From the NCBI GenBank assembly GCA_043819135.1, contig JBDRFG010000106.1, positions 67,612 to 131,611 on the forward strand: DNA of 64,000 nucleotides, in the 5' to 3' direction. The DNA is from Candidatus Eiseniibacteriota bacterium. GTDB taxonomy: Bacteria; Joyebacterota; Joyebacteria; Joyebacterales; Joyebacteraceae. The notes under the pieces are model-generated. The model was not told the DNA's origin, ran no database searches, and saw only the letters and a program-made list of their open reading frames with translations. The translations under genes were made by a program, and so were the position numbers. Below, one piece after another: positions 6,214-48,170 of the stretch (position 1 is the stretch's first letter; each line of letters begins with the position of its first letter).

Positions 6214-6951
6214 ATGGACGATGTCGAAAGGCTGGCTTCTGAGGTCCTGAGAAGGCTCAAGGGCAACGAACCCCGCGGCGGCGAGTCCGGTGTGGGCAAG
6301 CCTCAGGCGGACCAGTCGCGCGACGGCGGGTCGCCGAGCAGAGACGAGAGGGGCGGCCAGACGGGGGCCGGCGAAACTTCCTCGGGTATCCCGGTGACCG
6401 TGTCCGGGCGCCACATGCACATATCGAGGGGCGTCCTGGACCGGCTGTTCGGGGAGGGGTTCCAGCTGACCACGCTTCGCGACCTCGGTCAGCCCGGGGA
6501 ATTCGCCTCCGAGCAGACGGTGACCGTCGTTGGACGCTCGATGAAGGCCCTGGAGCGCGTGCGCGTGCTGGGGCCCGTGCGCACCTACACGCAGGTCGAG
6601 CTGTCCGGAACCGATGCCGTGCGCCTCGGGATCGAACCACCCGTAAGGAGATCCGGCGACCTCGTCGGAAGCGAGGGTGTCACGGTGGTCGGGCCGTCCG
6701 GATCGGTGCAGCTCAAAGAGGGCGCGATCATGTCGACCCGTCACGTTCACATGACCGAGCGTGACGCGAGGGAGTACGGGGTCGCCGACGGCGATCTTGT
6801 AAGAATGCGTTTCCCCGGCGACCGGGCAGTGGTTCTCGAGAAGGTACTGATCCGCGTCGGCAAGAGCGCGGCGCTTGAGCTTCACGTGGATACCGACGAT
6901 GCCAACGCCGCCGGAGTGCGGCTGCCGATGACCGTGAAGATCCTCAGCTGA
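6214..6951 (+). CDS. pduL: phosphate propanoyl/acyl-transferase PduL (BMC-associated phosphotransacylase) with N-terminal encapsulation peptide and long Gly/Ser/Arg linker
   Basis: Two PduL-type repeats with GRHMHIS and TRHVHMT metal-binding motifs and a C-terminal HVDTDDANAAG. N-terminal amphipathic helix VERLASEVLRRLKG followed by about 40 aa of low-complexity linker. GAGGA RBS. Confidence 0.85.
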   Translation: MDDVERLASEVLRRLKGNEPRGGESGVGKPQADQSRDGGSPSRDERGGQTGAGETSSGIPVTVSGRHMHISRGVLDRLFGEGFQLTTLRDLGQPGEFASEQTVTVVGRSMKALERVRVLGPVRTYTQVELSGTDAVRLGIEPPVRRSGDLVGSEGVTVVGPSGSVQLKEGAIMSTRHVHMTERDAREYGVADGDLVRMRFPGDRAVVLEKVLIRVGKSAALELHVDTDDANAAGVRLPMTVKILS

Positions 6952-6987
6952 TCTGACGGGCTCGTGCATATGGGGGAGGTGTGACAC

Positions 6988-7263
6988 TTGTCAGGCCTTG
7001 CACTGGGAATGGTCGAAACTAAGGGCGTGATAGGACTCATCGAGGCCACCGACGCCATGGTGAAGACCGCGAACGTTGTGTTGACGAAGTACGAGAAGAT
7101 AGGTGGGGGCTACGTAACGACGCTGGTCAGAGGCGACGTTGGCGCGGTCAAGGCGGCGGTGGCGGCGGGTGCGGAGGCCGCGCAGAAGATCGGCGAGTTG
7201 GTCTCCTACCACGTGATACCGGCGCCTCACGAAATGCTGGAGGATATACTGCTCAAACCGTAG
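6988..7263 (+). CDS. BMC-H shell protein (PduA/EutM-like hexamer, Pfam00936)
   Basis: [25 protein letters not shown]...[17 protein letters not shown] is a canonical BMC domain. TTG start with GGGGGAGG RBS 8 nt upstream. Confidence 0.9.
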
Positions 7264-7344
7264 GCGGTCCGACAGCGTCGTTTCACAGCTGACACTGCTG
7301 GAAGTGCTGTGACGGACAACACAATTCGGTCACAGGAGGAAGCA

Positions 7345-7641
7345 ATGGGCGAAGCCCTTGGTATGATCGAAACGCGCGGTTTCATTGGCATGGTCGAGGC
7401 ATCCGACGCCATGGTCAAGGCCGCCCAGGTCACGCTGGTGCACTACGAGAAGGTGGGCGGAGGCTATGTCACCGCTCTCGTCAGAGGCGACGTGGCGGCG
7501 GTCAGGGCTGCCGTGGACGCCGGAACCGCCGCGGCCAGCAAGGTCGGCGAGCTGATCTCCACGCACGTCATCCCGAAGCCTCATGAGAGCCTCGAGGACG
7601 TGCTGCCCATCGGCAAGACGTCCAGAGCGAAGGCCAAGTAG
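7345..7641 (+). CDS. BMC-H shell protein (PduA/EutM-like) with short basic C-terminal tail
   Basis: [29 protein letters not shown]... canonical BMC domain. AGGAGG RBS 7 nt upstream of the ATG at 7345; the track ORF starts earlier at 7309. Confidence 0.9.
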
Positions 7642-7743
7642 CGGCGACTCCGTGTGCCTTCGGGACGGCCCGGGCGCGGCGGCTCGACAGGCGCCGCTTT
7701 AGCCATCCGATGTCCGTGTGCCCCAACGGGGCGAGAGCGAGCT

Positions 7744-8031
7744 ATGAATCTCGGTAAAGTCGTAGGGACCGTGGTCTCGACCAGGAAGGACGAGAAGCTG
7801 GTCGGCACGAAGCTTCTGGTCGTCAGACAGATTGATCCTTCGGGAAGCGAGACAGGGACGTTCGTCGTGGCCGTGGATGCGGTCGGCGCCGGAACGGGGG
7901 AGGTCGTGCTGTACGCCAGCGGAAGCTCCGCGAGGCAGACGACGCTGACCCAGGACAGGCCCGCCGACGCGGTCATCATGGCGATCGTCGACGCGATCGA
8001 GATCGGGGGCGAGGTACTCTACACCAAGTAG
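7744..8031 (+). CDS. BMC-P vertex pentamer protein (EutN/CcmL/PduN family)
   Basis: [27 protein letters not shown]...[13 protein letters not shown] matches the EutN_CcmL fold. Internal ATG at 7744 of the longer track ORF. Confidence 0.85.
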
Positions 8032-8134
8032 CCTCATTGCGGCGATCCCGGATGGGGAGGAGGTCCGATCAGCCTGTGGGCGCGGAGCTTCTGTCTCTGT
8101 GGGATCGCTGCACTGTATCGGGGACGGCCAGTCC

Positions 8135-9568
8135 ATGGGCAAGGACGAAGCGGGAATCGGAGCGATAGTCGACCAGGTGGTCGGTGAGCTCAAGGCGAAG
8201 GGAGTGCAGGTCGCGGCTCCCGAGTGCCCGCTGCCGTTCGACGGCAGGGGCATCCTTGCGGACATCGACAGCGCCGTGTCGGCGGCGCAGCGCAGCCTGG
8301 CGGAATCGCGCGAAATGCCCATGGCCATCAGGGAGGCCGCGGTCGCTTCGATGAGACGCGCCATACTCTCGAACCTCGACCGCCTCTCGAGAATGGCCGT
8401 GGACGAGACCGGCCTGGGCCGTTTCGAGGACAAGGTGCGCAAGAACCGCCTGGTCGCGACCAACACGCCGGGCACGGAGGACCTCCGACCGATCGCCTAC
8501 TCGGGCGATCACGGCCTCACTCTCGTCGAGCGCGCCCCCTACGGCATCATCGGTTCGATCACCCCTTCCACGAACCCGACCGAGACCATCATCGGCAACG
8601 CCATCAGCATGGTAGCGGGCGGCAACGTCGTAGTGTTCAATCCGCACCCGAGCGCCCGAGCGGTCTCGCTGACTTGCATCGATCTGCTCAACCGCGCCAT
8701 CACCGAGGCCGGAGGACCGCGCGCGCTCCTTCTGACGGTGGGTTCACCCTCGATCGAGACCGCGCAGGCTCTGATGGCTCACGAAGGCGTTCGCCTTCTC
8801 GTGGTAACGGGCGGGCCGGGCGTGGTCAGAGCGGCCATGCAGTCGGGCAAGAAGGTGGTGGCCGCCGGACCCGGCAATCCGCCTGTTGTGGTGGACGAGA
8901 CCGCGGACATCGCACGGGCCGGACGCGACATCGTCGCGGGAGCCAGCCTGGACAACAACATCGTCTGCATCGCCGAGAAGGAGATAGTCGCCGTCCGCGG
9001 CATTGTGCCGCAGCTCAAGGATGCCATGACCGACGCCGGAGGCGTCGAGGTCAAAGGCAGGGCCGCGGAGCGCCTGACCGATCTCATCGTGGAGAAGGAC
9101 GCGGGGAAAGGCAAGCCATCGAGCCTCAACCGCCGCCTCATAGGCAAGGACGTCAGCGTCATCCTCGAGGAGGCCGGACTGCCGTGCCCGGCGGGCTCCC
9201 GCCTCGCCTTCTTCGACGCCGACAGCTCGCACCCGCTTGTGTGGTCCGAGCAGATGATGCCGGTCATTCCGCTGGTGACAGTCGAGACCGCCGACGAGGC
9301 GATCAGCTTCGCCAAAGAGGTCGAGCGCGCATTCGGTCACACCGCGGTGATGCACTCGAGGAACATCGCCAATCTCTCGAGAATGGCCAGGCTCATGGAC
9401 GTCTCCATATTCGTCAAGAACGGCCCGTCCTACGCGGGCCTCGGGTTCGGTGGAGAGGGATTCACCACCTTCACGATCGCAAGCCCGACGGGAGAGGGTC
9501 TCACGCGGGCATCAACGTTCACGCGCGAGCGCCGGTGCACGCTCGTCGACTACTTCCGCATAATCTAG
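8135..9568 (+). CDS. CoA-acylating aldehyde dehydrogenase (PduP/EutE-like) with N-terminal encapsulation peptide
   Basis: ALDH-superfamily features with a catalytic Cys region (NNIVCIAEKE) and EutE-like length. N-terminal amphipathic helix GIGAIVDQVVGELKAKG ahead of the catalytic domain. Located in the BMC operon. Confidence 0.85.
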   Translation: MGKDEAGIGAIVDQVVGELKAKGVQVAAPECPLPFDGRGILADIDSAVSAAQRSLAESREMPMAIREAAVASMRRAILSNLDRLSRMAVDETGLGRFEDKVRKNRLVATNTPGTEDLRPIAYSGDHGLTLVERAPYGIIGSITPSTNPTETIIGNAISMVAGGNVVVFNPHPSARAVSLTCIDLLNRAITEAGGPRALLLTVGSPSIETAQALMAHEGVRLLVVTGGPGVVRAAMQSGKKVVAAGPGNPPVVVDETADIARAGRDIVAGASLDNNIVCIAEKEIVAVRGIVPQLKDAMTDAGGVEVKGRAAERLTDLIVEKDAGKGKPSSLNRRLIGKDVSVILEEAGLPCPAGSRLAFFDADSSHPLVWSEQMMPVIPLVTVETADEAISFAKEVERAFGHTAVMHSRNIANLSRMARLMDVSIFVKNGPSYAGLGFGGEGFTTFTIASPTGEGLTRASTFTRERRCTLVDYFRII

Positions 9569-9599
9569 CGCGCGCGTAGCGGCCGCGACGGAGGACGAG

Positions 9600-10937
9600 G
9601 TGGCAGGAGCGACGGTCACGGCGATTCAGAAGGCAGGCGTCGTGGGCGCAGGTGGGGGCGGGTTCCCGACTCACATCAAGGCCGCCGCCGGCGCCGACAT
9701 CGTTCTGGCCAACGGCGCGGAGTGCGAACCACTTCTGAGGGCAGACACCGAGCTGATGTCGCGTGATGCCGAGCGGGTCGTCAGGGGACTCTCGATCGTC
9801 CGTGATTCCGTCGGCGCCGGGCGCGCTGTCATAGCGCTCAAGAAGAAGAACGCGCGCGCGCTCAACGCCATCGCGGGGGCGCTGTCCAGTGACAGCGGAG
9901 TAGAACTTCTGCCCCTGTCCAACGTGTACCCTGCCGGGGACGAGTTCCTTCTGGTGTTCGAGGCGACCGGACGCGTCGTGCCCGAGGGAGGCATACCGCT
10001 TGACGTGGGCGTGATCGTCAACAACGTGACGACGCTGGCCCAGGTAACAGACGCTGTCGAGGGACGTCCCGTCAGCGAAAAGATGGTCACGGTCCAGGGA
10101 GAGGTCGTCGCCCCTGGAACGTTCGTCACTCCGATAGGAACGTCCATCAATGAGCTGATCGCGAGCGCCGGCGGCGCAACGTGCGAAGACAGCGCGGTCG
10201 TGATAGGAGGCCCCATGATGGGGCACCTGATGCTCGACGGCGGTCAACCGACCACGAAGACCGTGGCCGGCGTCATCGTTCTTCCGGCCGACCATCGTCT
10301 CGTATCGTCAATGAGCTCCAGAGAGGCCCAGGTGCTCCGGCTCGCCAGAGCGGCGTGCTGTCAGTGCATGGCCTGCACCGAACTCTGTCCGCGTGCGCTC
10401 CTCGGCCACGGCCTCGAGCCTCACCGGACTGTGCGAGCCATCCAGTACGCCGAATTCCCGGAGGACCACAGGCACATAACCTCCGCATACCTCTGTTGCG
10501 AGTGCGGCATGTGCGAGCTCTTCGCGTGCCCGCTGGGAATCCAGCCCCGACGGATACTGGCTGACCTCAAGGCGGAACTGGTGCGGCGAGGCGTCCCGAA
10601 CCCGCACCGAAGAACGGACCTGTCGCCAGACGACGTGAGGGAGTACAGACAGATACCGACGGCGCGGCTCACGCGGAGACTGGGACTGGAGAGATACGAC
10701 GTTGACGCGCCGCTTCGCCCGGAACCGCTCTGTCCCTCGCGAGTGACGCTACGGATGAAACAGCACGTCGGCGAACCCGCCGTTCCGGTCGTCACGCCCG
10801 GCCAGACGGTCCTTAAGGGAGACGTCGTTGGAGAGGCCGCGGAGGACGTCGTGAGCGCAAGGGTGCACGCGAGCATCAGCGGCGTGGTCGAATCGGCAAG
10901 CGAGGACGCCGTGGTGATCGCGTCGGCGGACGCCTGA
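9600..10937 (+). CDS. PduS-like RnfC-family Fe-S flavoprotein (two 4Fe-4S ferredoxin motifs; NAD(H)/FMN-binding N-domain)
   Basis: N-terminal GVVGAGGGGFPTHIKAA (RnfC/NuoF-like nucleotide-binding domain). CxxCxxCxxxCP motif (CCQCMACTELCP) and a second Cys cluster (CCECGMCELFACP). Size and architecture match PduS. GTG start with GGAGGA RBS. Confidence 0.75.
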   Translation: MAGATVTAIQKAGVVGAGGGGFPTHIKAAAGADIVLANGAECEPLLRADTELMSRDAERVVRGLSIVRDSVGAGRAVIALKKKNARALNAIAGALSSDSGVELLPLSNVYPAGDEFLLVFEATGRVVPEGGIPLDVGVIVNNVTTLAQVTDAVEGRPVSEKMVTVQGEVVAPGTFVTPIGTSINELIASAGGATCEDSAVVIGGPMMGHLMLDGGQPTTKTVAGVIVLPADHRLVSSMSSREAQVLRLARAACCQCMACTELCPRALLGHGLEPHRTVRAIQYAEFPEDHRHITSAYLCCECGMCELFACPLGIQPRRILADLKAELVRRGVPNPHRRTDLSPDDVREYRQIPTARLTRRLGLERYDVDAPLRPEPLCPSRVTLRMKQHVGEPAVPVVTPGQTVLKGDVVGEAAEDVVSARVHASISGVVESASEDAVVIASADA

Positions 10938-10969
10938 CGAAACACGGGTGAAAGGGGAGGTACCGGTCG

Positions 10970-11518
10970 TTGAGAGAGGCAATCGGACTCATCGAGACAG
11001 TGAGCATCGCTATCGGCATCAGCGTGACCGATGAGATGGCCAAGACCGCCGATATCGAGGTGCTCGAATCGACGGCCATCTGTCCCGGCAAGTACATGGT
11101 CCTCATCGCGGGCGACGTGTCGTCCGTCGAGTCCTCGCTCAACCGCGGCATCGAGACGGGGGGGGACGTCGTGGTCGACACGCTCTTCATACCGCACGTC
11201 CACCCGCAGGTCTTCCCGGCGATCCTCGGAGCGACCGAGGTAGGGGACCTCCGTGCCCTTGGAGTCGTCGAGACGTTCACGGTCGCCTCGTCCATTCTGG
11301 CGGCAGACGCCGCCGCGAAGGCGGCGGGCGTCACACTGCTCGAGATACGACTGGCCAAGGGACTGGGTGGGAAGGCGTTCTTCACCATGATGGGAGAAGT
11401 GTTCGAGGTCGAGGCGGCCATGGAGGCCGCGCTTCGGGTGGCCAAGAGCGGCGGCAACCTCGTGAGGAGCGTCGTTATTCCCAGGCCGCACGAAAAGCTG
11501 CGTGCCAGCATACTGTAG
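10970..11518 (+). CDS. pduT: BMC-T shell protein, PduT-like tandem BMC-domain trimer with conserved Fe-S-ligating Cys
   Basis: Two tandem BMC domains (AIGLIETVSIA... and LGVVETFTVA...). The ICPGKYMVLIAGDVSSVESSL motif aligns with PduT, including the Cys that ligates the 4Fe-4S cluster. TTG start with AAAGGGGAGG RBS. Confidence 0.85.
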   Translation: MREAIGLIETVSIAIGISVTDEMAKTADIEVLESTAICPGKYMVLIAGDVSSVESSLNRGIETGGDVVVDTLFIPHVHPQVFPAILGATEVGDLRALGVVETFTVASSILAADAAAKAAGVTLLEIRLAKGLGGKAFFTMMGEVFEVEAAMEAALRVAKSGGNLVRSVVIPRPHEKLRASIL

Positions 11519-11542
11519 TCCCGCGGCGACGGAGGCAATTCG

Positions 11543-11812
11543 TTGCATCTTTGCAGAGTAATCGGCACGGTCTGGGCCACTCAGAAGGTCGACACCCTTA
11601 CGGGGTATCGCATGCTGGTCGTCCAGCCGCTCAGTCACGACCTCACGGAGAAGGGAACTCCAGTAGTCGCAGTGGACACGGTGAGCGCGGCGCCAGGGCA
11701 GCTGGTCTACATCGTTAAGTCGAGGGAGGCCGCCAAGGCCCTCGAGGAGCCTTTCAATCCGGTGGACGCGGCAATAGTGGGGATCGTCGACCACCTGCGC
11801 ACGTCGGCCTGA
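11543..11812 (+). CDS. BMC-P vertex protein (EutN/CcmL family), second paralog
   Basis: MHLCRVIGTVWATQKVDTLTGYRMLVVQP...VDTVSAAPGQLVYIV. TTG start with GGAGG RBS. Confidence 0.85.
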   Translation: MHLCRVIGTVWATQKVDTLTGYRMLVVQPLSHDLTEKGTPVVAVDTVSAAPGQLVYIVKSREAAKALEEPFNPVDAAIVGIVDHLRTSA

Positions 11813-11832
11813 TCGCGGCCCGGAGGTTATCC

Positions 11833-12105
11833 ATGTTCATTGCCAGGGTCATCGGCGAGGTCGTCTCGACGACAAAGCACCCTGCGCTACGGGGCAGAAA
11901 ACTCCTCGTGATCGAGAAGCTCACGGAGATGGGCGAGCCAACTGGAGACTCACAGCTGGCGGTCGACTCGGTCGACGCGGGGGAGGGGGACACGGTGCTC
12001 GTCATGGACGAGGGCAGTTCGGCCGCGCTGGTCACCGAGATGGACAATCCGCCCATCCGTACGGTGATCGTGGGCGTCGTCGACAGCGTGGACATCGAGG
12101 AGTAG
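11833..12105 (+). CDS. BMC-P vertex protein (EutN/CcmL family), third paralog
   Basis: MFIARVIGEVVSTTKHPALRGRKLLVIEK...VDSVDAGEGDTVLV. GGAGG RBS. Three BMC-P paralogs are typical of PVM-type loci. Confidence 0.85.
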   Translation: MFIARVIGEVVSTTKHPALRGRKLLVIEKLTEMGEPTGDSQLAVDSVDAGEGDTVLVMDEGSSAALVTEMDNPPIRTVIVGVVDSVDIEE

Positions 12106-12110
12106 CTGAT

Positions 12111-12923
12111 TTGCGTTCCGAGTTCGAGGCGAGAAGAGAGATCGTCGAGATAGGCAGGAGGCTATGGGAACGCGGCTACGTCGCGGCGAACGACGGCAAC
12201 ATCAGCGCGAGACTGGGCGACAGGATCCTAGTGACGCCGACCGGGCTGTCAAAGGGGTTCCTGAAGCCTTCCGACATGGTCGTCGTCTCTCCATCCGGCG
12301 AGAAGTTGTCGGGAGAGCTGGACCCCACGTCCGAGCTCCCGATGCACCTGGCCGTCTACAGGGCGAGGGCCAACGTCAGCGCGGTCGTTCACGCGCATCC
12401 GCCGAAGGCGACCGGCTTCGCCGTCGCGGGCGTACCACTCGCGCAATGCGTGCTTCCGGAGGTCATACTCACCCTGGGCGAGGTGCCGCTGGCCGGATAC
12501 GCGACTCCGTCGACCGAGGAGGTAGCGCGGTCGGTCAGTGAGTTCATCCCGCGCTACAACGCGATACTCCTGAGCAACCACGGCGTCCTCACGCTCGGGC
12601 GCGACCTGTCGCAGGCCTACTACCGCATGGAGACCGTTGAGCACTTCGCAGAGATAACGCTCGCTGCGAAGGCTCTGGGCGGGCCGTCGCCGCTCTCGAG
12701 CGACGACGTGCGAAAGCTCCTGAGCGTGCGGGACAAGCTCGGCCTGGAAACCGTGGCCGAGTGCACTGACTGCGGAGCATGCGCGGGCGCTTCGGCACCG
12801 GGCGGCGGTTCTACACCGGGCGGCGTCCCTCAGAAGGACGCCGAACCAGACGAAGAAGAGGTGGTCCGGGCCGTCCTGGCTCGGCTTGGCAAACTCATGG
12901 ATGAGAAAGGTGACCGGAGATGA
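12111..12923 (+). CDS. class II aldolase/adducin-family aldolase (L-fuculose-/L-rhamnulose-1-phosphate aldolase-like) with C-terminal extension (Cys motif + linker + amphipathic encapsulation helix)
   Basis: Class II aldolase features: the AVVHAHPP metal-binding His cluster and the VTPTGLSKG phosphate-binding loop. About 50 extra C-terminal residues: CTDCGAC, then a Gly/Ser/Pro linker, then EEEVVRAVLARLGKLMDE. TTG start with GAGGAG RBS. Confidence 0.8.
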   Translation: MRSEFEARREIVEIGRRLWERGYVAANDGNISARLGDRILVTPTGLSKGFLKPSDMVVVSPSGEKLSGELDPTSELPMHLAVYRARANVSAVVHAHPPKATGFAVAGVPLAQCVLPEVILTLGEVPLAGYATPSTEEVARSVSEFIPRYNAILLSNHGVLTLGRDLSQAYYRMETVEHFAEITLAAKALGGPSPLSSDDVRKLLSVRDKLGLETVAECTDCGACAGASAPGGGSTPGGVPQKDAEPDEEEVVRAVLARLGKLMDEKGDRR

Positions 12924-13862: not shown

Positions 13863-14006
13863 TGGTGTGTCCTCAATGGGTGAGAAGTCTCGTCCATCGA
13901 GGATGACACTCCGATTACGCGGTCCACGGGGGGCCGCGTTGCGAGCAGGCGATCGGGACACTGTCCCGGCGCGAGAGGCGAGTTCCGACGACGGAGGTTC
14001 AGGGCC

Positions 14007-14360
14007 ATGACGAAAGCCGACCTTGTGGATATCGTCGCAGGCAAGACAGGCCTCACGAAACGGGATGTAGCCCAGGTCGTGGAAGCTCTGCTCGAGGCCA
14101 TAAAGGCCTCGCTTGCGACTCACAAGCACATAGAGATCAGGGAATTCGGCACCTTCAAGGTCAAGCGGCGCAAGGCCAGCATGAAGTACAACCCCCGGGA
14201 TCGCTCCCAGAAGGTGGTGGTCCCTCAGAAGATGGTACCCGTTTTCAAACCGAGTAGATTTCTGAAGGAGAGGGTCAACTGGAGCGGGCAGGAAGGGGTG
14301 TCTGACACCGTCCCCGGCCCGGGGTCCGAAACAGAAAGCTCAGAGGAGGCCAATGTCTAG
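14007..14360 (+). CDS. HU/IHF-family nucleoid-associated DNA-binding protein
   Basis: MTKADLVDIVAGKTGLTKRDVAQVVEALLEAI...REFGTFKVKRRKA...NPRD is the canonical HU/IHF fold with a C-terminal extension. ACGGAGG RBS. Confidence 0.8.
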   Translation: MTKADLVDIVAGKTGLTKRDVAQVVEALLEAIKASLATHKHIEIREFGTFKVKRRKASMKYNPRDRSQKVVVPQKMVPVFKPSRFLKERVNWSGQEGVSDTVPGPGSETESSEEANV

Positions 14361-14448
14361 TCTCAAGAAGAAGCGACGAGCCAAGATGGCGAAGCACAAG
14401 CTCAAGAAGAGGCGCAGGAAGGACCGTCACAAGAAGAAGAACCGCTAG
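14353..14448 (+). CDS. small basic protein, bS22-like (AURKAIP1/COX24-domain 30S ribosomal protein bS22 candidate), 31 aa
   Basis: Not in the ORF track (below 60 aa). ATG at 14353 preceded by AGGAGG at optimal spacing. Product MSSLKKKRRAKMAKHKLKKRRRKDRHKKKNR matches the KKRRxxMxKxKxKKxLxRxRHKKK pattern of bS22. Overlaps the HU stop by 8 nt. Confidence 0.5.
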   Translation: MSSLKKKRRAKMAKHKLKKRRRKDRHKKKNR

Positions 14449-14464
14449 GCAAGGATGTTCGCCA

Positions 14465-15016
14465 GTGCCAAAGAGGTCGCTCGACGTTAGGAAGGTGACG
14501 AGGCTCGTGAATCACGGGCCCACTGTGCTGGCCTCGAGCCGGCATGCGGAGAGAAGTAACGTCATCACATTGGCTTGGGCGATGCCTGTCAGCATCGATC
14601 CACCGATGATTGGTATAGCGGTAGCGCCGGCGCGCTTCTCCCATGACCTGATAGCGCGCTCCGGGGAATTCGTGGTGAACATCCCCGGATCCAATCTACT
14701 GCAGGCCGTCTGGTACTGCGGGACGGCCTCCGGACGGGACGGTGACAAGTTCGAGGAAGCCGGCCTGACCGAGGCTCCGGGCAGCGTTGTTGGGGCGCCC
14801 CTTGTAATGGAGTGCTTCGGGCACGCGGAATGCAGGGTTGTCTCGGCACCGATAACTGGGGACCACACGCTGTTTGTGGGAGAGGTCGTTGCTGCATCCG
14901 TGGAGAGTTCCGCCTTTGACGGGCACCTGCGGCTGCGAAGGCCCTACCACACGCTGCATCATCTGGGCGGCTCGCGCTTCGTAACGTCTGCGGGCACAAG
15001 GCTGAACGCCGCCTAG
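14465..15016 (+). CDS. flavin reductase-like domain protein (FMN-binding split barrel)
   Basis: 183 aa; the pattern VITLAWAMPVSIDPPMIGIAV...FVVNIP...HTLFVGEV is typical of the Flavin_Reduct family. GTG start. Confidence 0.7.
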   Translation: MPKRSLDVRKVTRLVNHGPTVLASSRHAERSNVITLAWAMPVSIDPPMIGIAVAPARFSHDLIARSGEFVVNIPGSNLLQAVWYCGTASGRDGDKFEEAGLTEAPGSVVGAPLVMECFGHAECRVVSAPITGDHTLFVGEVVAASVESSAFDGHLRLRRPYHTLHHLGGSRFVTSAGTRLNAA

Positions 15017-15071
15017 ACCGATTTTGACGCCGGCGGGCGACCGGCAACAGATGTCATCTCTTGGAGGCGCG

Positions 15072-15473
15072 ATGGGCGACAAGAAGAGAGACGATTGGGG
15101 TGGCAGGGAGAGAAGGCAGTCGAAGCGCGTGGACGCACAGATAGCGCTTCAACTGTCAGGAGCGGATGAGGCTTTCCCCGGCGAGTCGATCACGACCGAG
15201 AGCATCAACGTCGGTGCGGAGGGCGTCTACTGCCATGTGGGGCACTTCGTGTCGCCCCTGACCAAGCTCCAGGTTACCATGGTCCTGCCTGTGAAGAACA
15301 AGAAGGGGCAGGTGAAGAACGAGATAGTGAAGACTCAGGCCGTGGTGGTGAGGTGTCAGCCTTCGGGCGACGAGAACGGGGGTTACAGAGTCGCTTGTTT
15401 CTTCACCGGTCTGGATGCCGGAACAAAAAGTACTATCGAGGAGTATGTCAGGCAGCACGCCCTGAGGGTGTAG
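15072..15473 (+). CDS. PilZ-domain protein (c-di-GMP receptor candidate)
   Basis: RRQSKRV (RxxxR) followed by a D/NxSxGG-like motif (INVGAEGVY). GGAGG RBS before the ATG at 15072; the track ORF begins earlier at 15024. Confidence 0.6.
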   Translation: MGDKKRDDWGGRERRQSKRVDAQIALQLSGADEAFPGESITTESINVGAEGVYCHVGHFVSPLTKLQVTMVLPVKNKKGQVKNEIVKTQAVVVRCQPSGDENGGYRVACFFTGLDAGTKSTIEEYVRQHALRV

Positions 15474-15530
15474 GGCGCTGCTTCGGCCCCTCTCAAGAGC
15501 AACCTCGACGATTCGACAGCAGCAAGGCAA

Positions 15531-15567
15531 ACGGACGGCCCGGCGCTTGAGCGCCGGGCCGTTTCTC
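15531..15567. terminator. bidirectional rho-independent terminator candidate between convergent PilZ and outer-membrane protein genes
   Basis: Perfect 10-bp GC stem GGCCCGGCGC-TTGA-GCGCCGGGCC, extended by AAAC/GTTT pairing and followed by a T-rich run (TTTCTCT). Confidence 0.5.
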
Positions 15568-15585
15568 TACCTTATGAAACTCAGA

Positions 15586-16935
15586 CTAGAAGCGGTAGGT
15601 AGCCTCAAAGATGAGGTCCGTATCGTCGACACTCTCGACGTACGCGTACTCGTCGTCCGCCCTCTCGTAGGTGCCGTTCATCCACGCGACATCGATAGCC
15701 AGCACGGTGTCGATGAGTATCCCTGCGCCCAGTGTGAAGTAGGAGCGGTCAGTTGTGACTTCCAGGCCATTGTACGCGATCGGCCGGTACGCGTAGCCGC
15801 CGCGAATCCGGAGGGGCCAGGAGGGAACCGTCAGCTCTGCGCCCACTCCGTACCCGACCTTCTCGTCGTAGAGGGCCCGCCGCTGGGGGACGTCGGCGCT
15901 CTCGTCTGTCTCGGTTATCCTGCCCGCGTAGTCCATCTCAGACCAGTCGGAGTAGCTGAGATCAGCTCCGACGACAATGAAATCCGCCGGCGCGTAGGCG
16001 ACTCCCGCGCGGAACGCGAAGGGCAGCGTCACCTTGTCGGAGAAGAACTCACTCCACTCACCGACCGTCGTAGAATCCGGCATCACCTTCCTGACGTAAT
16101 CCCACCCAGTGCCATCGAACGTCACCGCCGTCGGCGTGTCGATCGCGACTCCGACGGAAAGCCCCTCCATCGCATAGAAGAGACCTCCGATCGTTCCGCG
16201 AAAGCCGGTGATGTCGGCCTCAGACCGCTCCTGTAGGTGAACCTCAGTGTACGTTTCAGAGACATAGTCGACGGTGTCATAGATGTCCCAGACGAAGCCC
16301 CTTGAGTAGTCGCCAACGAGATAGGAGAAGGCAACGCCAAGCGATACAGTGGGAGAGACCTCAAGCGCACAGGCAGCGGACAGCGCCGTGATACCACCGT
16401 CGGAGACGTAGTCCTCTTTGTTATACCATACGCCGCTGGCATCGGGACCATCGACGCCGTCGTCGGGATGCTCGTCCCACTCTATCTCGCCGTCGTAGGC
16501 AGCCAACCTGTCTCCGGCGAAGTCATAGATCCGCTCGGCGCTGAAACCGAGGACAAGGCTGCCCCTGAACGTCGGGAACGGATAGGCGAAACGTAGCGAC
16601 GCCAGGTCCGTCCCACTCAGGTCGGTCCCAAACTCGCTGCCGGACATCTCGCCGTCTACCCCGAGCGAGCCTCTTCTGAAGCCGCCGGAGAGCTCGACCC
16701 TGTTCAACCGTGCCATCGCCGCCGGATTGGACATTATCGCGGTCGCATCGTCAGCGACCGCCATCGAGACGAACCCCATGCCGACTGCCCTCGCGCCGGT
16801 GGCGAGCGTGTTGGTGAGCGGTACCTCGTCCAGCGGAGCGACGAAGCCCGAGTCGGCCCTCGAGGCCGGCGGCGAAGCGAGCATCGCCAGAACGCCGGCA
16901 AGGACCGGGACGTACGTCAGCCGCTTCCTGCTCAT
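15586..16935 (-). CDS. outer-membrane beta-barrel protein, PorV/PorQ (FadL-like) family candidate
   Basis: Signal peptide MSRKRLTYVPVLAGVLAMLASPPASRA. N-terminal motif GARAVGMGFVSMAVADDATAIMSNPAAMA is shared with the PorV-like ORF at 48171. Alternating aromatic strands; C-terminal YRF (terminal Phe typical of OMPs). Start trimmed to the ATG at 16935, which has a GAGGAG RBS. Confidence 0.6.
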   Translation of the reverse strand: MSRKRLTYVPVLAGVLAMLASPPASRADSGFVAPLDEVPLTNTLATGARAVGMGFVSMAVADDATAIMSNPAAMARLNRVELSGGFRRGSLGVDGEMSGSEFGTDLSGTDLASLRFAYPFPTFRGSLVLGFSAERIYDFAGDRLAAYDGEIEWDEHPDDGVDGPDASGVWYNKEDYVSDGGITALSAACALEVSPTVSLGVAFSYLVGDYSRGFVWDIYDTVDYVSETYTEVHLQERSEADITGFRGTIGGLFYAMEGLSVGVAIDTPTAVTFDGTGWDYVRKVMPDSTTVGEWSEFFSDKVTLPFAFRAGVAYAPADFIVVGADLSYSDWSEMDYAGRITETDESADVPQRRALYDEKVGYGVGAELTVPSWPLRIRGGYAYRPIAYNGLEVTTDRSYFTLGAGILIDTVLAIDVAWMNGTYERADDEYAYVESVDDTDLIFEATYRF

Positions 16936-16948
16936 CCTCTTCTCCTCG

Positions 16949-17479
16949 CTAGAAACCCTTCTTCGGCTTCTTCCACAGGTTCCGCTCGTCCTTCTCCTTC
17001 TCTTCGTCCTTCTCTTCGTCCTTCTTGTCGTCCTTCTTGTCGTCCTTCTTGCTCGACAGGTTCGCAGGGGGCGTCGCGCGGCTAGTGCCGGACCCCGGCT
17101 TGGCGAAACCCCAGCCGCTGGATGCCCAGCCTCCGGGACTCCAGAGGTGCCTGGTACCCGTCTCCACCTCTGGCGCATCGTAGTCGTGATCGTAGTCGTG
17201 ATCGTAGTCGTATTGGTCCCACTGCCAGTGGTCGTTGTGCCACCAGGGGGAACCGTAGTAGCTGCCCCAGCGGTTGTGCGAACGTCCGTAGCTGTAGTAC
17301 GGATGACTGTACGGGTGGTAGTAGGCAGCGTCCGCGTGGCAGTCCGCACAGCTTCTGTAGGCGCTGCCCTCATGAGCCACGCTGCTCCCCGTCGGGTGCT
17401 GAAGAACCGTGTAACACCCGGTATTCAGGAGCAGAAGGGAGACCACGAGGAGCGCGCCCGCCTGCGCTGTCCGTTTCAT
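16949..17479 (-). CDS. His/Tyr/Trp-rich lipoprotein with CXXCH motif, YDHD tandem repeats and Lys/Asp/Glu-rich C-terminal tail
   Basis: Lipoprotein signal MKRTAQAGALLVVSLLLLNTG-C. CADCH matches the c-type heme-binding pattern. HPYSHPYYSY and DYDHDYDHDYD repeats. Tail is KKDDKKDDKKDEEKDEEKEKDE...KKPKKGF. GGAGAGGGGA RBS. Upstream of, and probably co-transcribed with, the OMP gene. Confidence 0.6.
   Translation of the reverse strand: MKRTAQAGALLVVSLLLLNTGCYTVLQHPTGSSVAHEGSAYRSCADCHADAAYYHPYSHPYYSYGRSHNRWGSYYGSPWWHNDHWQWDQYDYDHDYDHDYDAPEVETGTRHLWSPGGWASSGWGFAKPGSGTSRATPPANLSSKKDDKKDDKKDEEKDEEKEKDERNLWKKPKKGF
17177..17212. repeat. 12-nt tandem repeat (TAGTCGTGATCG x about 2.7) inside the lipoprotein gene
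   Basis: Direct sequence inspection. Encodes the in-frame DYDH repeat on the minus strand. Confidence 0.5.
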
Positions 17480-17741
17480 ATTGCGTCCCCTCTCCAGCGA
17501 GTGCATCGTTCCATTCTGAAACAACTCTGAAACAGCGGAGTTACCAAGTGAGTTTGACGCCCCGCCAACTTCGTCAATTCAAATATAGCACAGCTCCAGC
17601 ACGCCCCCAAGCGGCATCATGAGGCACCCTCGGGGCCGGCACCCCCCCCGCACGGCGTGGGAGCTCCTCGGGTCCGCACAGAGCTTGAGAGGGACTCTGG
17701 CGCGTGCTAGACTGTGTTCCGTGCACAAGGAGGTTTCTCTG

Positions 17742-19082
17742 TTGGCTTTGTCTCAAGTGAAACGAATCTGCGAGATCACGGCGGTGATTGTCTGCACCGT
17801 CGTTATGCTCGGCGCCTTCAACGCACCCGCCCGGAGCGCCGGGAACACCGCTGAGATCCGTCCCAACTCTCAGGCGTACCTCCACTACAGCCTGGGGCGT
17901 CTCCTGGAGGTCAGCGGCGCGCTGAATGACGCGCTCGTGCAGTACCGCAGGGCGGACTTGTTCGATCCGGACCACTGCGAGGTCAGCGTCGCTGTCGCCC
18001 GCACGCTCCACGCGCTCGGCAGGCTCGAGGAGGCGAGCGACAGGAGTGGGGAGGCTCTTGAGCTGTGCCCGGACAACCTGGAGGCCATCGCCGTCCGCTG
18101 CGAACTCCTGCTCGTCCAGGGCGAGTCCGGGGAAGCGGAACGGATCCTCAGAGAGGTCGCGCTGGGCCAGGACGCGCCGCGGGAGTTAGCGGCGCTGTAC
18201 GGACAGGCTTTGCTGTCGCAGGGACGCACGGAGGATGGGGCCGCGTATCTGCGCTCCCGTTCCGATGTGGATTCGCTCGACCCCGATATCGCCTCCATGC
18301 ACGGCCGCGCCCTGCTGATCCTTGGAGACTCAGAGGGAGCGATCTCCGAGCTGGGGCGGTCTTTGCGACTCGACCCCGGCAACAGGGCCGTCGCCGGCAT
18401 GCTGTCCCGCCTCCTGATAGCTCTGGAGAGACCGGAGGAGGGCGTGCCGCTGCTCGAGTGGATACTCTCCAGATATCGAGCGCTCGAACCCGAGTTCATT
18501 TCTCTGGCCGCAGGCTACTCGATGCTCGACGAACCGGAACGGGCACAGGCGGTCCTCGACACGGCAAGCGCCAGGTTCGGCGATACCGCGCCCATCTTGC
18601 GGGCACGCGGCGCCGCGTACTATGGAGCGGGAGATCTCGACAGCGCCGTCGAAACGTATGAGAAGCTGCTCGAACTGGACGAGGACTCGGTGACGGCGCT
18701 CAACTTCATCGCCTACACGCTGGCCGATGAGGAGCGCGACCTCGAACGCGCTGCCGACTACGCGGTGCGTGCCGTCGCACTCGAGCCGGACAACCCCCTT
18801 CTGCGCGACACGCTGGGCTGGACCCACTTCAAGCTGGGGAGCATGGAGGAGGCGAGACGGGAACTCGACCTCGCGATCGAGCTGGGCGGCGACAACCCGG
18901 TCATACTTGAACACCTGGGCGATGTTCTGCTCGAACTCGGACTGATCGACAGGGCAGTCGCGGTCTGGACGAGGGCACTGGAGCTGTCGCCGGGGCGTGC
19001 CTCCACGATCGAGCGCATCGAATCCGCCGGCGCCACGACACCCGAGGGCTCGCGCGAGTCCCTGACCGGAGAGACACCATGA
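17742..19082 (+). CDS. secreted TPR-repeat protein
   Basis: Multiple 34-aa TPR-like units (AxxxYxxALxxxP patterns) throughout. Signal peptide ...KRICEITAVIVCTVVMLGAFNAPARSA. Start uncertain: TTG at 17742 is 8 nt after an AAGGAGG RBS; GTG at 17757 is the alternative. Confidence 0.65.
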   Translation: MALSQVKRICEITAVIVCTVVMLGAFNAPARSAGNTAEIRPNSQAYLHYSLGRLLEVSGALNDALVQYRRADLFDPDHCEVSVAVARTLHALGRLEEASDRSGEALELCPDNLEAIAVRCELLLVQGESGEAERILREVALGQDAPRELAALYGQALLSQGRTEDGAAYLRSRSDVDSLDPDIASMHGRALLILGDSEGAISELGRSLRLDPGNRAVAGMLSRLLIALERPEEGVPLLEWILSRYRALEPEFISLAAGYSMLDEPERAQAVLDTASARFGDTAPILRARGAAYYGAGDLDSAVETYEKLLELDEDSVTALNFIAYTLADEERDLERAADYAVRAVALEPDNPLLRDTLGWTHFKLGSMEEARRELDLAIELGGDNPVILEHLGDVLLELGLIDRAVAVWTRALELSPGRASTIERIESAGATTPEGSRESLTGETP

Positions 19083-19882
19083 GAGTTCTACCGGTCCTGG
19101 GCGTTGCAGTGCTGACACTGCTCGCGGGCTGTGCGCCCGCACCGCGAGTGGGGGAGCCCGTTGGGCCTTCCGAGCTCACAGCGTTGGTGGACGCGATCAA
19201 CTCGGGCCTCCCCGGGGCCGACAGCTACCGGGGAACCGGAGAGGGCGAAATAACGCTGTCCGGAAGAACGGTCGACGTGGCGTTCGCCGTCGTCTACGAG
19301 CGGCCGGGCTGGCTCAGGGCCGATATCAGACCGGCGCTCGGAACGCTCGGCGCGTCTCTGACCACCCTCGCCCTCCTGGAGGGAGAATGCGCCCGTCTCT
19401 ACCTCCCGGCGCGCCTGCTGGTAGTGACCGCGTGTCTTTCGGATTTCGCCGGTTACGGCGACTGGCTCGATCCCGCATCGCTCATTCTGGGACTGCCGGA
19501 CGCCTCCTTCATCACGAGGATGACCGGGGTCACGGCCACGCGCAGGGGCGGACTCCTGACTCTCGACGGCCTGGCGGAGGGTTCGCGCGTCCGGGTGAAG
19601 GTCGACGTGGCCCGCTCGGTCATCACGGAGATCGAACTCGGTCGCGAAGACGCGGATGAGTATCTGAGCCTGACCTACAGCGGACACGGCTGGAAGCCGG
19701 GAACGACAGCGCCGAAAACGGTTGAACTCGCGGCGCTCGAGGGTGAGAGTCGCGAGGTGGGGATCACTATCAGGTACGACTCGCTGCGCGGAGGCGAGGC
19801 GGTCGACCGCGGCGCGTACGACCTCGGGGTTCCCCCCGGCGCTCTCGAGGTCGACTGGAAAGAACTCAACATCTGGAGGTGA
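19079..19882 (+). CDS. lipoprotein of unknown function (LolB/DUF4292-like candidate)
   Basis: Lipobox LTLLAG-C. ATGA overlap with the TPR gene stop. Confidence 0.5.
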   Translation: MRVLPVLGVAVLTLLAGCAPAPRVGEPVGPSELTALVDAINSGLPGADSYRGTGEGEITLSGRTVDVAFAVVYERPGWLRADIRPALGTLGASLTTLALLEGECARLYLPARLLVVTACLSDFAGYGDWLDPASLILGLPDASFITRMTGVTATRRGGLLTLDGLAEGSRVRVKVDVARSVITEIELGREDADEYLSLTYSGHGWKPGTTAPKTVELAALEGESREVGITIRYDSLRGGEAVDRGAYDLGVPPGALEVDWKELNIWR

Positions 19883-19895
19883 AGCGGGGGTGAAG

Positions 19896-20903
19896 ATGAA
19901 GAAGCTCGAAGGCGGACTGGTCCGTCTCACGCTTTGCGTGGTGGCTCTCGCGGCGCTTCTGTCGTGCTCGGGTCCGGTGGTGACCGCGGTCGGCGACAGT
20001 GACGACCTGGTTGTCATCTACGATGAGGGTTCGTCCGAACTCGTCGAGCTCGTGGTCGCCTCCCTGGAATCCCCGAGGAGCTGGCTTCTGGACGAGCCGG
20101 CGTTCAAAACGACCCTGACAACGCTCGAGGAATCCGGGGACCTGAAGAACCTGAGGCACGTGCTTCTCGTCGGCACCTGGGAGAGCGGGGCGGTCGGAAG
20201 GATGGCGCGGGAGGTGTTCCCCGGACTTGCCGAAGGTGACCCTGCTGCCCTGCACTTCACCGACGACGTGTGGGCGAAGCGCCAGCTGGTCGGAGCGGTG
20301 ATGGGCGCGAACTCCGAGGCGGTCGCGGCGTTCATTCGTGACCGGGGAGACCAGGTTCGCGACGACCTCGAGGCTGCGGCGCTCAGGCGCCTGTCGACCT
20401 CGCTTCGCGAGACAGCCGTCGAGGCCGGCATGGCGGCCGCGTTGTCCGAACGCTTCGGATGGTCCGTGAGTCCCCCGAGCGGCTACGACTTCTACACGAC
20501 CGACGCGGAGGATGGGTTCGTGTTCTTCCGCAGAACGCGGCCCGACAGGACCGTCTTCGTCTACTGGACGAGCGGCGCCCCCGAGTTCGTGTCCGAGCAG
20601 TTCGCACTGTCCAGGCGCGACGAGCTGGCCGGGCGCTACCTCGACGGTGACGCCATCGAGTGGAACCGCCCCGTCGAGGCCGAGCGAGTCGACTTCCTGG
20701 GCCGACGTGTAGTTCGCGTGTCGGGATGGTGGGGCAACAGAACGCTCGTAGGGGGAGGGCCGTTTCGGACGTACTGCTTCTACGAGCCGTCACAGGAGCG
20801 CGTGTACCTTGTGGACGTCAGCCTGTTCGCTCCCGGCTTCGACAAGACGGCGCTCATGCGAAATCTCGACGCGATCGCGCACACCTTCACGGTGGAAGGC
20901 TGA
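19896..20903 (+). CDS. lipoprotein of unknown function
   Basis: Lipobox ALLS-C after MKKLEGGLVRLTLCVVALA. Start trimmed to the ATG at 19896; GTG at 19890 is the alternative. Confidence 0.5.
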   Translation: MKKLEGGLVRLTLCVVALAALLSCSGPVVTAVGDSDDLVVIYDEGSSELVELVVASLESPRSWLLDEPAFKTTLTTLEESGDLKNLRHVLLVGTWESGAVGRMAREVFPGLAEGDPAALHFTDDVWAKRQLVGAVMGANSEAVAAFIRDRGDQVRDDLEAAALRRLSTSLRETAVEAGMAAALSERFGWSVSPPSGYDFYTTDAEDGFVFFRRTRPDRTVFVYWTSGAPEFVSEQFALSRRDELAGRYLDGDAIEWNRPVEAERVDFLGRRVVRVSGWWGNRTLVGGGPFRTYCFYEPSQERVYLVDVSLFAPGFDKTALMRNLDAIAHTFTVEG

Positions 20904-47750: not shown

Positions 47751-47825
47751 CTCAAGCGGCGGTGCTGGACCCACGGCGGATGTCCCTGTCACCGGACGCG
47801 CCGGGAACCAGGGTCGGGAGAACGC

Positions 47826-48110
47826 GTGAACGTCCTTCAGGAAGCCCGGCCGGTTGAGATCAGGATGGACGAGGAAAGCCGTCGACTTGCAAGTGTGTCT
47901 GTCTCTACACTTCTCTACATGATCGACTACGGACTGGCGAAGGAGAGAGATCTGGGACGCCACGAGATCAACCTCGGTTATCTCGCGGACGATGAGTGTG
48001 ACCTGCTTGAAGCCCTGAGGCTGTCGGAGCGTCTAAGGAGAGTAGCAACGAACATTCGGCGGACCGGCAGAACCAACGAGAGGATCCGCGCCGAACTAGT
48101 CCGAAGATGA
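47826..48110 (+). CDS. hypothetical small protein (94 aa), weakly supported
   Basis: Only plausible ORF in the 420-bp gap. GTG start with GGGAGA upstream. No recognisable motif. Confidence 0.25.
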   Translation: MNVLQEARPVEIRMDEESRRLASVSVSTLLYMIDYGLAKERDLGRHEINLGYLADDECDLLEALRLSERLRRVATNIRRTGRTNERIRAELVRR

Positions 48111-48170
48111 TCCGGACGCCAGAACGGACGGATGCGCTGATCTATTCTCTCTTTACAACGGACGAGAAGA

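Follow-up and report, generated by a model that had tools for sequence, protein, structure and literature searches.

What might be the role of a small lipoprotein of no characterised family, rich in His, Tyr and Trp and carrying one CxxCH motif, that is encoded immediately upstream of an outer membrane β-barrel? The question is raised by two adjacent minus-strand genes in a 64,000-nucleotide stretch of DNA from a Candidatus Eiseniibacteriota bacterium (assembly GCA_043819135.1, contig JBDRFG010000106.1, positions 67,612 to 131,611); we call this whole 64-kb stretch "the window" and number it from its first letter. Proteins identical to the two products carry the locus tags ABIE42_07905 and ABIE42_07900. 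Our analysis shows that the two genes are a conserved, operon-like pair, which we read as a dedicated outer membrane pair, and we consider below what its members may do. Related loci are cited by the labels L001–L074, and P0238 is the label of a single related protein. The parts of the pair on which the argument depends, in the order in which they are transcribed, are these:

16949-17479, minus strand: lipoprotein gene including its stop codon (ATG at 17479, TAG at 16949; 176 amino acids), from its open reading frame (ORF) and sequence.
17414-17479, minus strand: signal peptide and lipobox, residues 1-22 (MKRTAQAGALLVVSLLLLNTG-C, ending LLLLNTG-C22); Cys22 is present in 278 of 278 relatives, a count partly built in by their selection on the N-terminal motif.
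17393-17416, minus strand: lipidated N-terminus C-Y-T-V-L-Q-H-P, residues 22-29, a proposed barrel-docking peptide in which His28 is a candidate distal heme ligand.
17336-17350, minus strand: C-A-D-C-H, residues 44-48, a putative single heme c attachment motif, from motif conservation.
17240-17269, minus strand: aromatic motif W-G-S-Y-Y-G-S-P-W-W, residues 71-80, from column conservation.
17177-17211, minus strand: 12-nt tandem repeat encoding DYDH units (2.9 copies, 100% matches in Tandem Repeats Finder), a variable acidic/His/Tyr spacer.
17141-17155, minus strand: T-R-H-L-W, first copy, residues 109-113 (R110 in 219, H111 in 146 and W113 in 176 of 278 relatives).
16985-17053, minus strand: Lys/Asp/Glu (K/D/E) tail, a variable charged spacer, largely repeat-encoded and without column conservation.
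16952-16984, minus strand: C-terminal R-N-L-W-K-K-P-K-K-G-F, the second R-x-L-W copy with the terminal GF (Eisenbacteria consensus LWKxxKKGF).
16936-16948, minus strand: spacer of 13 nt between the lipoprotein stop and the barrel ATG, CGAGGAGAAGAGG, which holds the ribosome binding site (RBS) GAGGAG.
15586-16935, minus strand: FadL/BamG-type barrel gene including its stop codon (ATG at 16935, TAG at 15586; 449 amino acids).

A first-pass annotation of the window had described a two-gene minus-strand operon whose lipoprotein is coupled to an outer membrane partner, and both ORFs, as well as their pairing in relatives (below), bear this out. It had placed the lipoprotein stop codon 14 nt from the RBS; in fact 13 nt separate that stop from the barrel ATG, and the RBS lies within them. 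The lipoprotein ATG at 17479 is preceded by GGAGAGGGGA. CADCH, HPYSHPYY, DYDHDYDHDYD and a charged tail, all of which had been pointed out earlier, are indeed present in the lipoprotein, as is KKDDKKDDKKDEEKDEEKEKDE; the tandem 12-nt DYDH repeat is likewise real, and a second 12-nt tandem repeat at 16995-17051 (4.8 copies, 95% matches, Tandem Repeats Finder) encodes the K/D/E tail. The share of His, Tyr and Trp, previously put at about 25%, is 19% in the precursor, 22% in the mature protein and 31% in its core (residues 22-127), and it averages 5.7% in nine other proteins of the window. Among the real genes of the window, that of the lipoprotein alone encodes a CxxCH. Two spurious long ORFs also cover the pair, a 595-amino acid in-frame upstream extension of the barrel ORF (15586-17373, minus strand) and a 267-amino acid antisense ORF (16727-17530, plus strand) that overlaps the real genes; such ORFs are typical of DNA with 62-65% G+C.

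The strongest result of the analysis is the strict pairing of the two genes across phylum-level lineages. In all five metagenome or metagenome-assembled genome (MAG) loci that were looked up, the barrel gene follows the lipoprotein gene at a distance of 2-25 nt, and the most divergent Eisenbacteria relative keeps the pair in a neighbourhood that is otherwise different. A wider scan, with one genome per GTDB species, returned 63 loci, and in 58 of these a full or substantial homologous barrel stands directly after the lipoprotein. The remaining five comprise L026, in which the contig stops after a 22.9-bit barrel fragment, three loci in which the contig stops before any barrel is visible, and L054 (KSB1), which has no barrel and in which a penicillin amidase gene follows the lipoprotein instead. 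By their genome labels the 63 loci are mostly from Eisenbacteria, with others from Krumholzibacteriales, Ignavibacteria/Ignavibacteriota, Gemmatimonadota, Zixibacteria, KSB1, Latescibacterota, "Cloacimonetes", Effluviviaceae and one Terriglobales.

The lipoprotein family is large and compact. A word-index homology search found 95 proteins, all but five of them 156-193 amino acids long and the named ones all from Eisenbacteria, and a HMMER profile search (E ≤ 0.001) against 1.84 billion representatives gave 335 clusters at 50% identity; the 150 clusters listed of these 335 are all 84-237 amino acids long, and none has a fused extra domain. The earlier view that the lipoprotein belongs to no characterised family has held up, in that Pfam, NCBIfam and PDB profile searches gave no significant match: the Pfam and NCBIfam scans (E ≤ 1) yielded only a noise-level match of the K/D/E tail to a ribosomal stalk protein, and a PDB search with the first lipoprotein profile yielded nothing. 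No known cytochrome family or fold was matched above threshold in Pfam, NCBIfam or the PDB, and the AlphaFold2 (AF2) model of the lipoprotein, built with 39 sequences, is disordered, with a predicted local distance difference test score (pLDDT) of 49.5; past the signal peptide, only scattered residues reach 50. The lipoprotein is thus predicted to be mostly disordered and to have no autonomous fold. Below threshold, the matches of the family profile are to c-type cytochromes only. The top four PDB matches are cytochromes, among them NrfA, in which IRHPEY...CTDCH aligns with the LxHPE...x15...CxDCH of the family, and a few family members are matched by Cytochrome_C7 and Paired_CXXCH.

Conservation in the family is concentrated in three short segments. 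The counts that follow are from 278 distinct relatives, picked because they carry the first five residues of the motif at the N-terminus, a choice that partly fixes in advance the figures for C22 to L26. The near-invariant N-terminal positions are C22 (278), Y23 (276), T24 (278), H28 (273) and P29 (276); owing to this choice of sequences only the counts for H28 and P29 are unbiased. The heme-motif columns are kept to nearly the same degree (C44 in 272, C47 in 271, H48 in 272), and so are those of the aromatic box (W71 262, Y74 262, Y75 267, P78 264, W79 276, W80 276). In a set of 243 sequences, 223 match the full N-terminal motif C-Y-T-(V/L/M)-L-x-H-P, 237 have exactly one CxxCH and 203 have exactly three Cys. 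The two x positions of the CxxCH vary in this set (the first is mostly A, S, T or Y and the second mostly D, S, E, Q or R), and the distance from the lipid Cys to the CxxCH is 19-34 residues, with a median of 22. The R-H-L-W-type motif, in one central and one C-terminal copy, recurs in distant members. The least conserved parts are the DYDH region and the K/D/E tail, whose length and composition differ even between sequences that are 60-77% identical (39-sequence alignment); the expectation of the first-pass annotation that the repeats would vary is borne out by this alignment, in which the repeat-encoded stretches of relatives differ in length.

To judge from these sequence comparisons, the DYDH repeats and the K/D/E tail act as variable, disposable spacers and do not belong to the functional core, whereas one CxxCH together with a second conserved His is what one would expect at a site of heme c attachment. 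The conservation statistics of CxxCH and His28 make the pattern unlike that of a disulfide or a generic metal site. The lipoprotein had been suggested to bind metal or heme, and of these two ideas heme binding is a reasonable reading because the CXXCH is conserved, while metal binding by the repeats and tail is unsupported because they are the least conserved parts of the protein. A more specific possibility is that H28, C44, C47 and H48, the only near-invariant potential ligands, form a Cys2His2-type Zn or Cu site in a low-complexity lipoprotein, with the His/Tyr/Asp repeats adding metal capacity; the window lipoprotein is indeed rich in His and Asp. We regard this as the least probable of the explanations considered here, and very doubtful, since the DYDH/His-rich stretch is not conserved, the weak profile matches are to cytochromes and none is to a metal-binding family, and coordination of one metal ion by the adjacent C47 and H48 would be unusual in metal-site geometry.

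The partner is an outer membrane barrel of the FadL superfamily. It passes the Pfam threshold for Toluene_X/FadL (PF03349) with 44.6 bits against a cutoff of 29.7, and its AF2 model is confident (pLDDT 87.3, predicted template modelling score 0.82) and has the FadL fold; this agrees with the FadL/PorV-like barrel predicted for it earlier, although the 14 strands are assigned by fold match to FadL and not by a direct strand count. Foldseek with this model ranked BamG of B. thetaiotaomicron first. BamG was also the first match in the PDB sequence profile search (3e-15, compared with about 1e-7 for FadL and 0.02 for PorV), and it is the best NCBIfam match (NF053685) at 59.5 bits, far under the 250-bit equivalog cutoff. 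Eight of nine partner barrels from other lineages likewise have BamG as best match, with 46.8-88.3 bits, and the ninth, from L041, has no BamG match at E ≤ 1e-5. PorV_fam (NF033709) gives 48.5 bits, under its cutoff of 90. Near its N-terminus the barrel carries the motif of the hatch that plugs such barrels:

16720-16797, minus strand: hatch motif GARAVGMG...AVADD...NPA, residues 47-72; G52, M53, N70, P71 and A72 are invariant in 51 homologues.

The similarity of this motif to the PorV-like protein at 48171 had been noticed before and is genuine (19 of 33 residues are identical), but because that protein is the window's real PorV2, the shared GxRAxGMG...NPA marks the whole FadL/PorV superfamily. 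Nineteen residues stand before GARAxGMG, of which P34, E37 and P39 are nearly invariant. A search with phmmer using the N-terminal 103 residues of the barrel returned no FadL or BamG chain, so the size of its N-terminal extension depends on what we take to be the FadL N-terminus, relative to which it is presumably only about six residues, compared with the conserved extension of some 10-12 residues that in BamG runs through the lateral opening. The barrel terminates at its last strand (...IFEATYRF, residue 449) and lacks a C-terminal extension of the BamG type. By these sequence criteria it belongs to a distinct clade of the FadL superfamily that is roughly equidistant from FadL and BamG, and is not PorV.

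The matches to BamG raise the possibility that the pair serves outer membrane biogenesis. The Bacteroidota β-barrel assembly machinery (BAM) complex (PDB 9HIV, 9HJ3, 9HJM and 9N2D; NCBIfam NF053685) includes the FadL-fold barrel BamG and the lipoprotein BamH. BamH has its conserved N-terminal residues lodged between BamG strands (PMC12578637), and the C-terminal extension of BamG contacts BamD (PMC12611786, PMC12578637). The genes bamG2 and bamH2 form an operon in B. thetaiotaomicron (PMC12578637), and bamG has bamH as its neighbour in I. album, S. ruber, F. succinogenes, G. aurantiaca and C. abyssi (Liu et al.; PMC12578637, PMC12611786). As in the window, then, a FadL-fold barrel is encoded beside a lipoprotein with highly conserved residues after its lipid Cys. 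By analogy the window barrel might serve as the BamG-type subunit in a BAM complex of the kind known from the Fibrobacterota-Chlorobiota-Bacteroidota (FCB) superphylum. The lipoprotein, although not homologous to BamH, would then take its place, wedged at the barrel by its lipid anchor and N-terminus, and the CxxCH would have a structural or accessory role. In favour of this are the first rank of BamG for the window barrel in NCBIfam, in the PDB sequence profile search and in Foldseek, and in NCBIfam for the eight partner barrels; the gene adjacency in several species of the FCB superphylum; and the wide conservation of the pair among envelope and housekeeping genes (tetratricopeptide repeat (TPR), lipoprotein and DUF4837 genes, with TamB nearby in L070). 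We nevertheless judge it possible but unlikely. The barrels score only 47-88 bits, far from the 250-bit cutoff, and the window barrel has no C-terminal extension. BamH is a large folded protein, whereas the window lipoprotein has a mature length of about 155 amino acids, is predicted to be disordered, contains a CxxCH, has no acidic export signal after its lipid Cys and no sequence similarity to BamH; profiles of the lipoprotein run against the PDB, which holds BamH chains (9HJ3, 9HJM, 9N2D), matched none of them at E ≤ 10. The invariant CxxCH and His would be left unexplained. IALB_1454/1455 are the BamH and BamG that Liu et al. give for I. album, and the 120 matches listed include no I. album homologue by which the pair could be equated with them.

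The same barrel data bear on a second alternative, in which the barrel would be a FadL-type channel for a hydrophobic ligand (heme, porphyrin, quinone or lipid) and the lipoprotein would capture this ligand and hand it over by means of its His, Cys and aromatic residues, without covalent heme. Like FadL, TodX and CymD, the barrel passes the PF03349 threshold and has a hatch with an invariant NPA, a motif that we take to be marked as functionally important by the FadL NPA mutants among the PDB matches, and the conserved His, Cys, Tyr and Trp of the lipoprotein are typical contacts of heme and aromatic ligands. The pair differs from those systems in that the barrel has only about 14% identity to FadL, carries the conserved N-terminal extension GFVAPLxEIPLT before the hatch motif and has an obligate upstream lipoprotein partner, and FadL systems are not known to require a lipoprotein. 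There are no genes for catabolism or uptake nearby and no inner membrane transporter gene beside the pair; the exact C-x-x-C-H spacing with free x positions is, moreover, the signature of covalent heme c and not of reversible binding. We find an uptake module rather improbable.

Taken together, these observations lead us to favour, tentatively, the reading that the pair is a barrel-docked lipoprotein which would carry one c-type heme near its lipid anchor, at the membrane surface; this may well be correct, although we would stop short of calling it probable. The signal peptide and lipobox of the lipoprotein provide for its export across the inner membrane, beyond which c-type cytochromes receive their heme. 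After Sec export and lipidation, a single heme c would be covalently joined at C44 and C47, with H48 as its proximal and H28 probably as its distal ligand, and would so be held a few residues from the lipid anchor, at the surface of the membrane. The lipidated N-terminal peptide might then dock on the wall of the barrel as the conserved N-terminus of BamH docks on BamG, an idea for which the BamG-BamH complex is the precedent. The outcome would be a barrel-anchored mini-cytochrome with a part in redox reactions or electron transfer at the outer membrane; in it the DYDH and K/D/E stretches would be spacers, and the R-H-L-W motifs could be short sites for another partner, perhaps the TPR protein in Eisenbacteria. 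Some Eisenbacteria MAGs have been reported to contain homologues of Cyc2 as well as cytochrome c oxidase (PMC9769843), which suggests, without proving it, that heme c is matured in the phylum.

Several facts weigh against the heme-carrying lipoprotein. A CxxCH motif alone is no proof of heme attachment, and in 68 loci the surroundings of the pair, to a distance of about 8 kb, contain no cytochrome c maturation gene (of the CcsA/CcmF type) and no other cytochrome gene; neither does the window, where the neighbours are housekeeping and envelope genes. His28, present in 273 of the 278 relatives, is replaced by Asp in L070. Three members (L047, L050 and P0238) lack the CxxCH although they keep the N-terminus and the PWW box, and the barrels whose partners lack it in L047 and L050 showed no informative differences from the rest. 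The Ignavibacteria, in addition, have a CxxCH-less paralogue, GCYT(Q/E/R)..., that combines an extremely high content of Tyr, Trp and Pro with a long Ser/Gly/Arg tail. Its gene precedes that of a barrel from the same family; in L041 and L070 it stands in tandem with the CxxCH form, and in L072 and L074 it stands alone:

L041, 6906-7952: CxxCH-less paralogue.
L070, 3423-4355: CxxCH-less paralogue.
L072, 3877-4968: CxxCH-less paralogue.
L074, 3614-4765: CxxCH-less paralogue.

Because such a paralogue is sometimes the sole copy, the heme site would be dispensable for whatever the pair does. Finally, the hatch plugs the barrel, so there is no room for a heme inside the FadL lumen of the kind proposed for Cyc2. 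The members without CxxCH and the Asp of L070 make the C-Y-T start, the aromatic box and the barrel partner look like an older core, to which the heme site was a widespread addition or from which it was sometimes lost.

A bolder form of the proposal would make the pair a previously unrecognised outer membrane cytochrome, in which a lipid-anchored single-heme peptide without a globular fold sits in the wall or lateral opening of a FadL-type barrel and serves as a minimal device for redox chemistry or electron transfer, or as a heme-gated channel; it would occur widely in Eisenbacteria, Zixibacteria, KSB1, Krumholzibacteria, Ignavibacteria and related lineages, and would have evolved independently of Cyc2 and of the Mtr/Pcc porin-cytochromes. 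As a whole this seems to us unlikely. Cyc2, MtrAB, PioAB and Pcc resemble the pair in that a cytochrome with one or few hemes is tied to an outer membrane barrel, and Cyc2 also has a single CXXCH near its N-terminus. Cyc2, however, is a fusion with a 16-strand porin, whereas the window pair consists of two polypeptides and its FadL barrel has a hatch; the Cyc2 motifs PxFAR[Q/K][T/Y] upstream and PxL downstream of CXXCH are absent from the flanks of the window motif (...HEGSAYRS-CADCH-ADAAYYHP...). Homology to Cyc2 was rejected on these motifs and on architecture. Unlike the porin-cytochrome complexes, the window pair has no periplasmic cytochrome partner nearby. The Geobacter protein PgcA ("hemes on a string"; PMC10570954) is comparable as a lipoprotein c-type cytochrome with repetitive low-complexity linkers between its heme sites. 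PgcA differs in having three folded monoheme domains and Pro-Thr linkers, where the window lipoprotein has a single heme motif, lacks a folded domain and is obligately paired with a barrel.

The surroundings of the pair add two features, a probable terminator and a divergent gene:

15533-15560, strand not assigned: GC-rich hairpin between the convergent barrel and PilZ genes, likely a bidirectional terminator (a 61-nt stretch folds at -36.4 kcal/mol); the terminator scan flagged its plus-strand arm.
17619-19082, plus strand: divergent TPR protein gene, assigned by its TPR families, a conserved Eisenbacteria neighbour whose product is a possible periplasmic partner.

On one side of the pair the window contains a microcompartment locus and genes for S49 peptidase, HU, flavin reductase and PilZ, and on the other the divergent TPR gene, a 267-amino acid lipoprotein gene, and genes for DUF4837, EF-P, AccBC, FtsK, MreB and PBP2. 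An Rfam scan of 14000-19000 gave no match, and neither did a sigma-70 promoter scan. A TPR gene in divergent orientation to the pair is also present in L001-L005, L049 and L051; this arrangement is limited to Eisenbacteria and close relatives and was not found in other phyla, and no third component is conserved beside the pair between phyla. The TPR proteins of the window and of L049 (6071-7744) match the Pfam TPR domain of CcmH/CycH with 43 and 82 bits against a cutoff of 42, which is a mere lead because TPR families cross-match widely.

The TPR gene also brings in the Slam system of Neisseria, which combines a 14-strand barrel and a TPR domain with a lipoprotein substrate adjacent to them. 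All three elements are present at the window locus, the divergent TPR gene is conserved within Eisenbacteria, and an unfolded substrate would suit translocation. By analogy the barrel (with the TPR protein in Eisenbacteria) might be a translocon that delivers the lipoprotein to the cell surface, the conserved N-terminus being an export signal. We think this very improbable: the barrel has a FadL fold and no DUF560 match, the TPR_Slam match of the TPR protein is generic and below threshold (22 bits versus 35.2), and the TPR gene is not conserved outside Eisenbacteria. It is also compatible with the other explanations and does not exclude them; more generally, the heme-carrying lipoprotein and its alternatives are not all mutually exclusive. 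As an identity for the locus, a Slam system was rejected, there being no DUF560 match and only a sub-threshold match to TPR_Slam.

The first-pass annotation had offered a module linked to the type IX secretion system (T9SS) as another option, and this finds no support. PorV and PorQ of that system are in the same superfamily as the barrel and have the N-terminal hatch motif in common with it, but the barrel is under the PorV_fam cutoff, no T9SS genes adjoin the pair (the locus neighbours are TPR, PilZ and flavin reductase genes), and the Pfam scan found no Por_Secre_tail or other sorting domain in the lipoprotein. We therefore rejected a T9SS/PorV identity on scores and gene context. The T9-type pair of the window, at 44172-49196, is a separate locus 27 kb away that encodes a PorU2-like C25 peptidase of 1192 amino acids, which bears a C-terminal T9SS sorting domain, and after it a barrel of the PorV2 type; this barrel, at 48171, has 113.5 bits to PorV_fam, above the cutoff, and 187 bits to PorVQ2.

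Other features of these neighbourhoods are recorded here as observations. At 19079-20903 the window encodes the 267-amino acid lipoprotein, which has no family match, and DUF4837; the gene order TPR, a 265-268-amino acid gene without Pfam match, and DUF4837 is syntenic in L001-L003. The microcompartment locus (6214-12923) comprises PTAC (6214-6951), an RnfC/Nuo51-like flavoprotein (9600-10937), a BMC shell protein (10970-11518) and a class II aldolase (12111-12923), and RnfC-like, BMC, EutN and aldolase genes stand in the same order upstream of the pair in L001-L003. A small outer membrane protein of 250-280 amino acids is encoded directly upstream of the lipoprotein in L052, L054 (674-1522, for example), L063, L066 and L068-L074; its family is confined to Zixibacteria, KSB1 and Ignavibacteria and is absent from the Eisenbacteria loci. 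In L069-L071, from an Ignavibacteria-like MAG, a 708-amino acid protein with nine CXXCH and a T9SS sorting tail is encoded about 440 nt downstream of the barrel (6878-9004), with TamB further on; we treat this nine-heme cytochrome as incidental, because it is not conserved in the related L072-L074.

What is new here is the coupling of a lipidated, disordered peptide with a single heme motif to a FadL-type barrel, together with its breadth across phylum-level lineages; lipoprotein-barrel pairs and porin-cytochromes are as such already known kinds. Literature searches on FadL barrels together with cytochromes, heme motifs and porins yielded no description of such a pair. The family can be tested directly, because it is small, its invariant residues are clear (C22, H28, C44, C47, H48, W79 and W80) and its partner is obligate. 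If the proposal is true, a large family that lies outside Pfam and NCBIfam (the 335 clusters at 50% identity) would be present in eight or more phylum-level lineages by genome label, most of them uncultured, and would represent a new way to build an outer membrane cytochrome, with the heme on a lipidated but otherwise disordered peptide for which a FadL-type barrel provides the scaffold. The pair also bears on the role of BamG/FadL-like barrels of the FCB superphylum outside the Bacteroidota, where it may be asked whether those lineages have a BAM of the Bacteroidota style with other lipoprotein partners, and on a capacity for redox chemistry in the envelope and outside the cell that surveys restricted to multiheme cytochromes and Cyc2 would miss.

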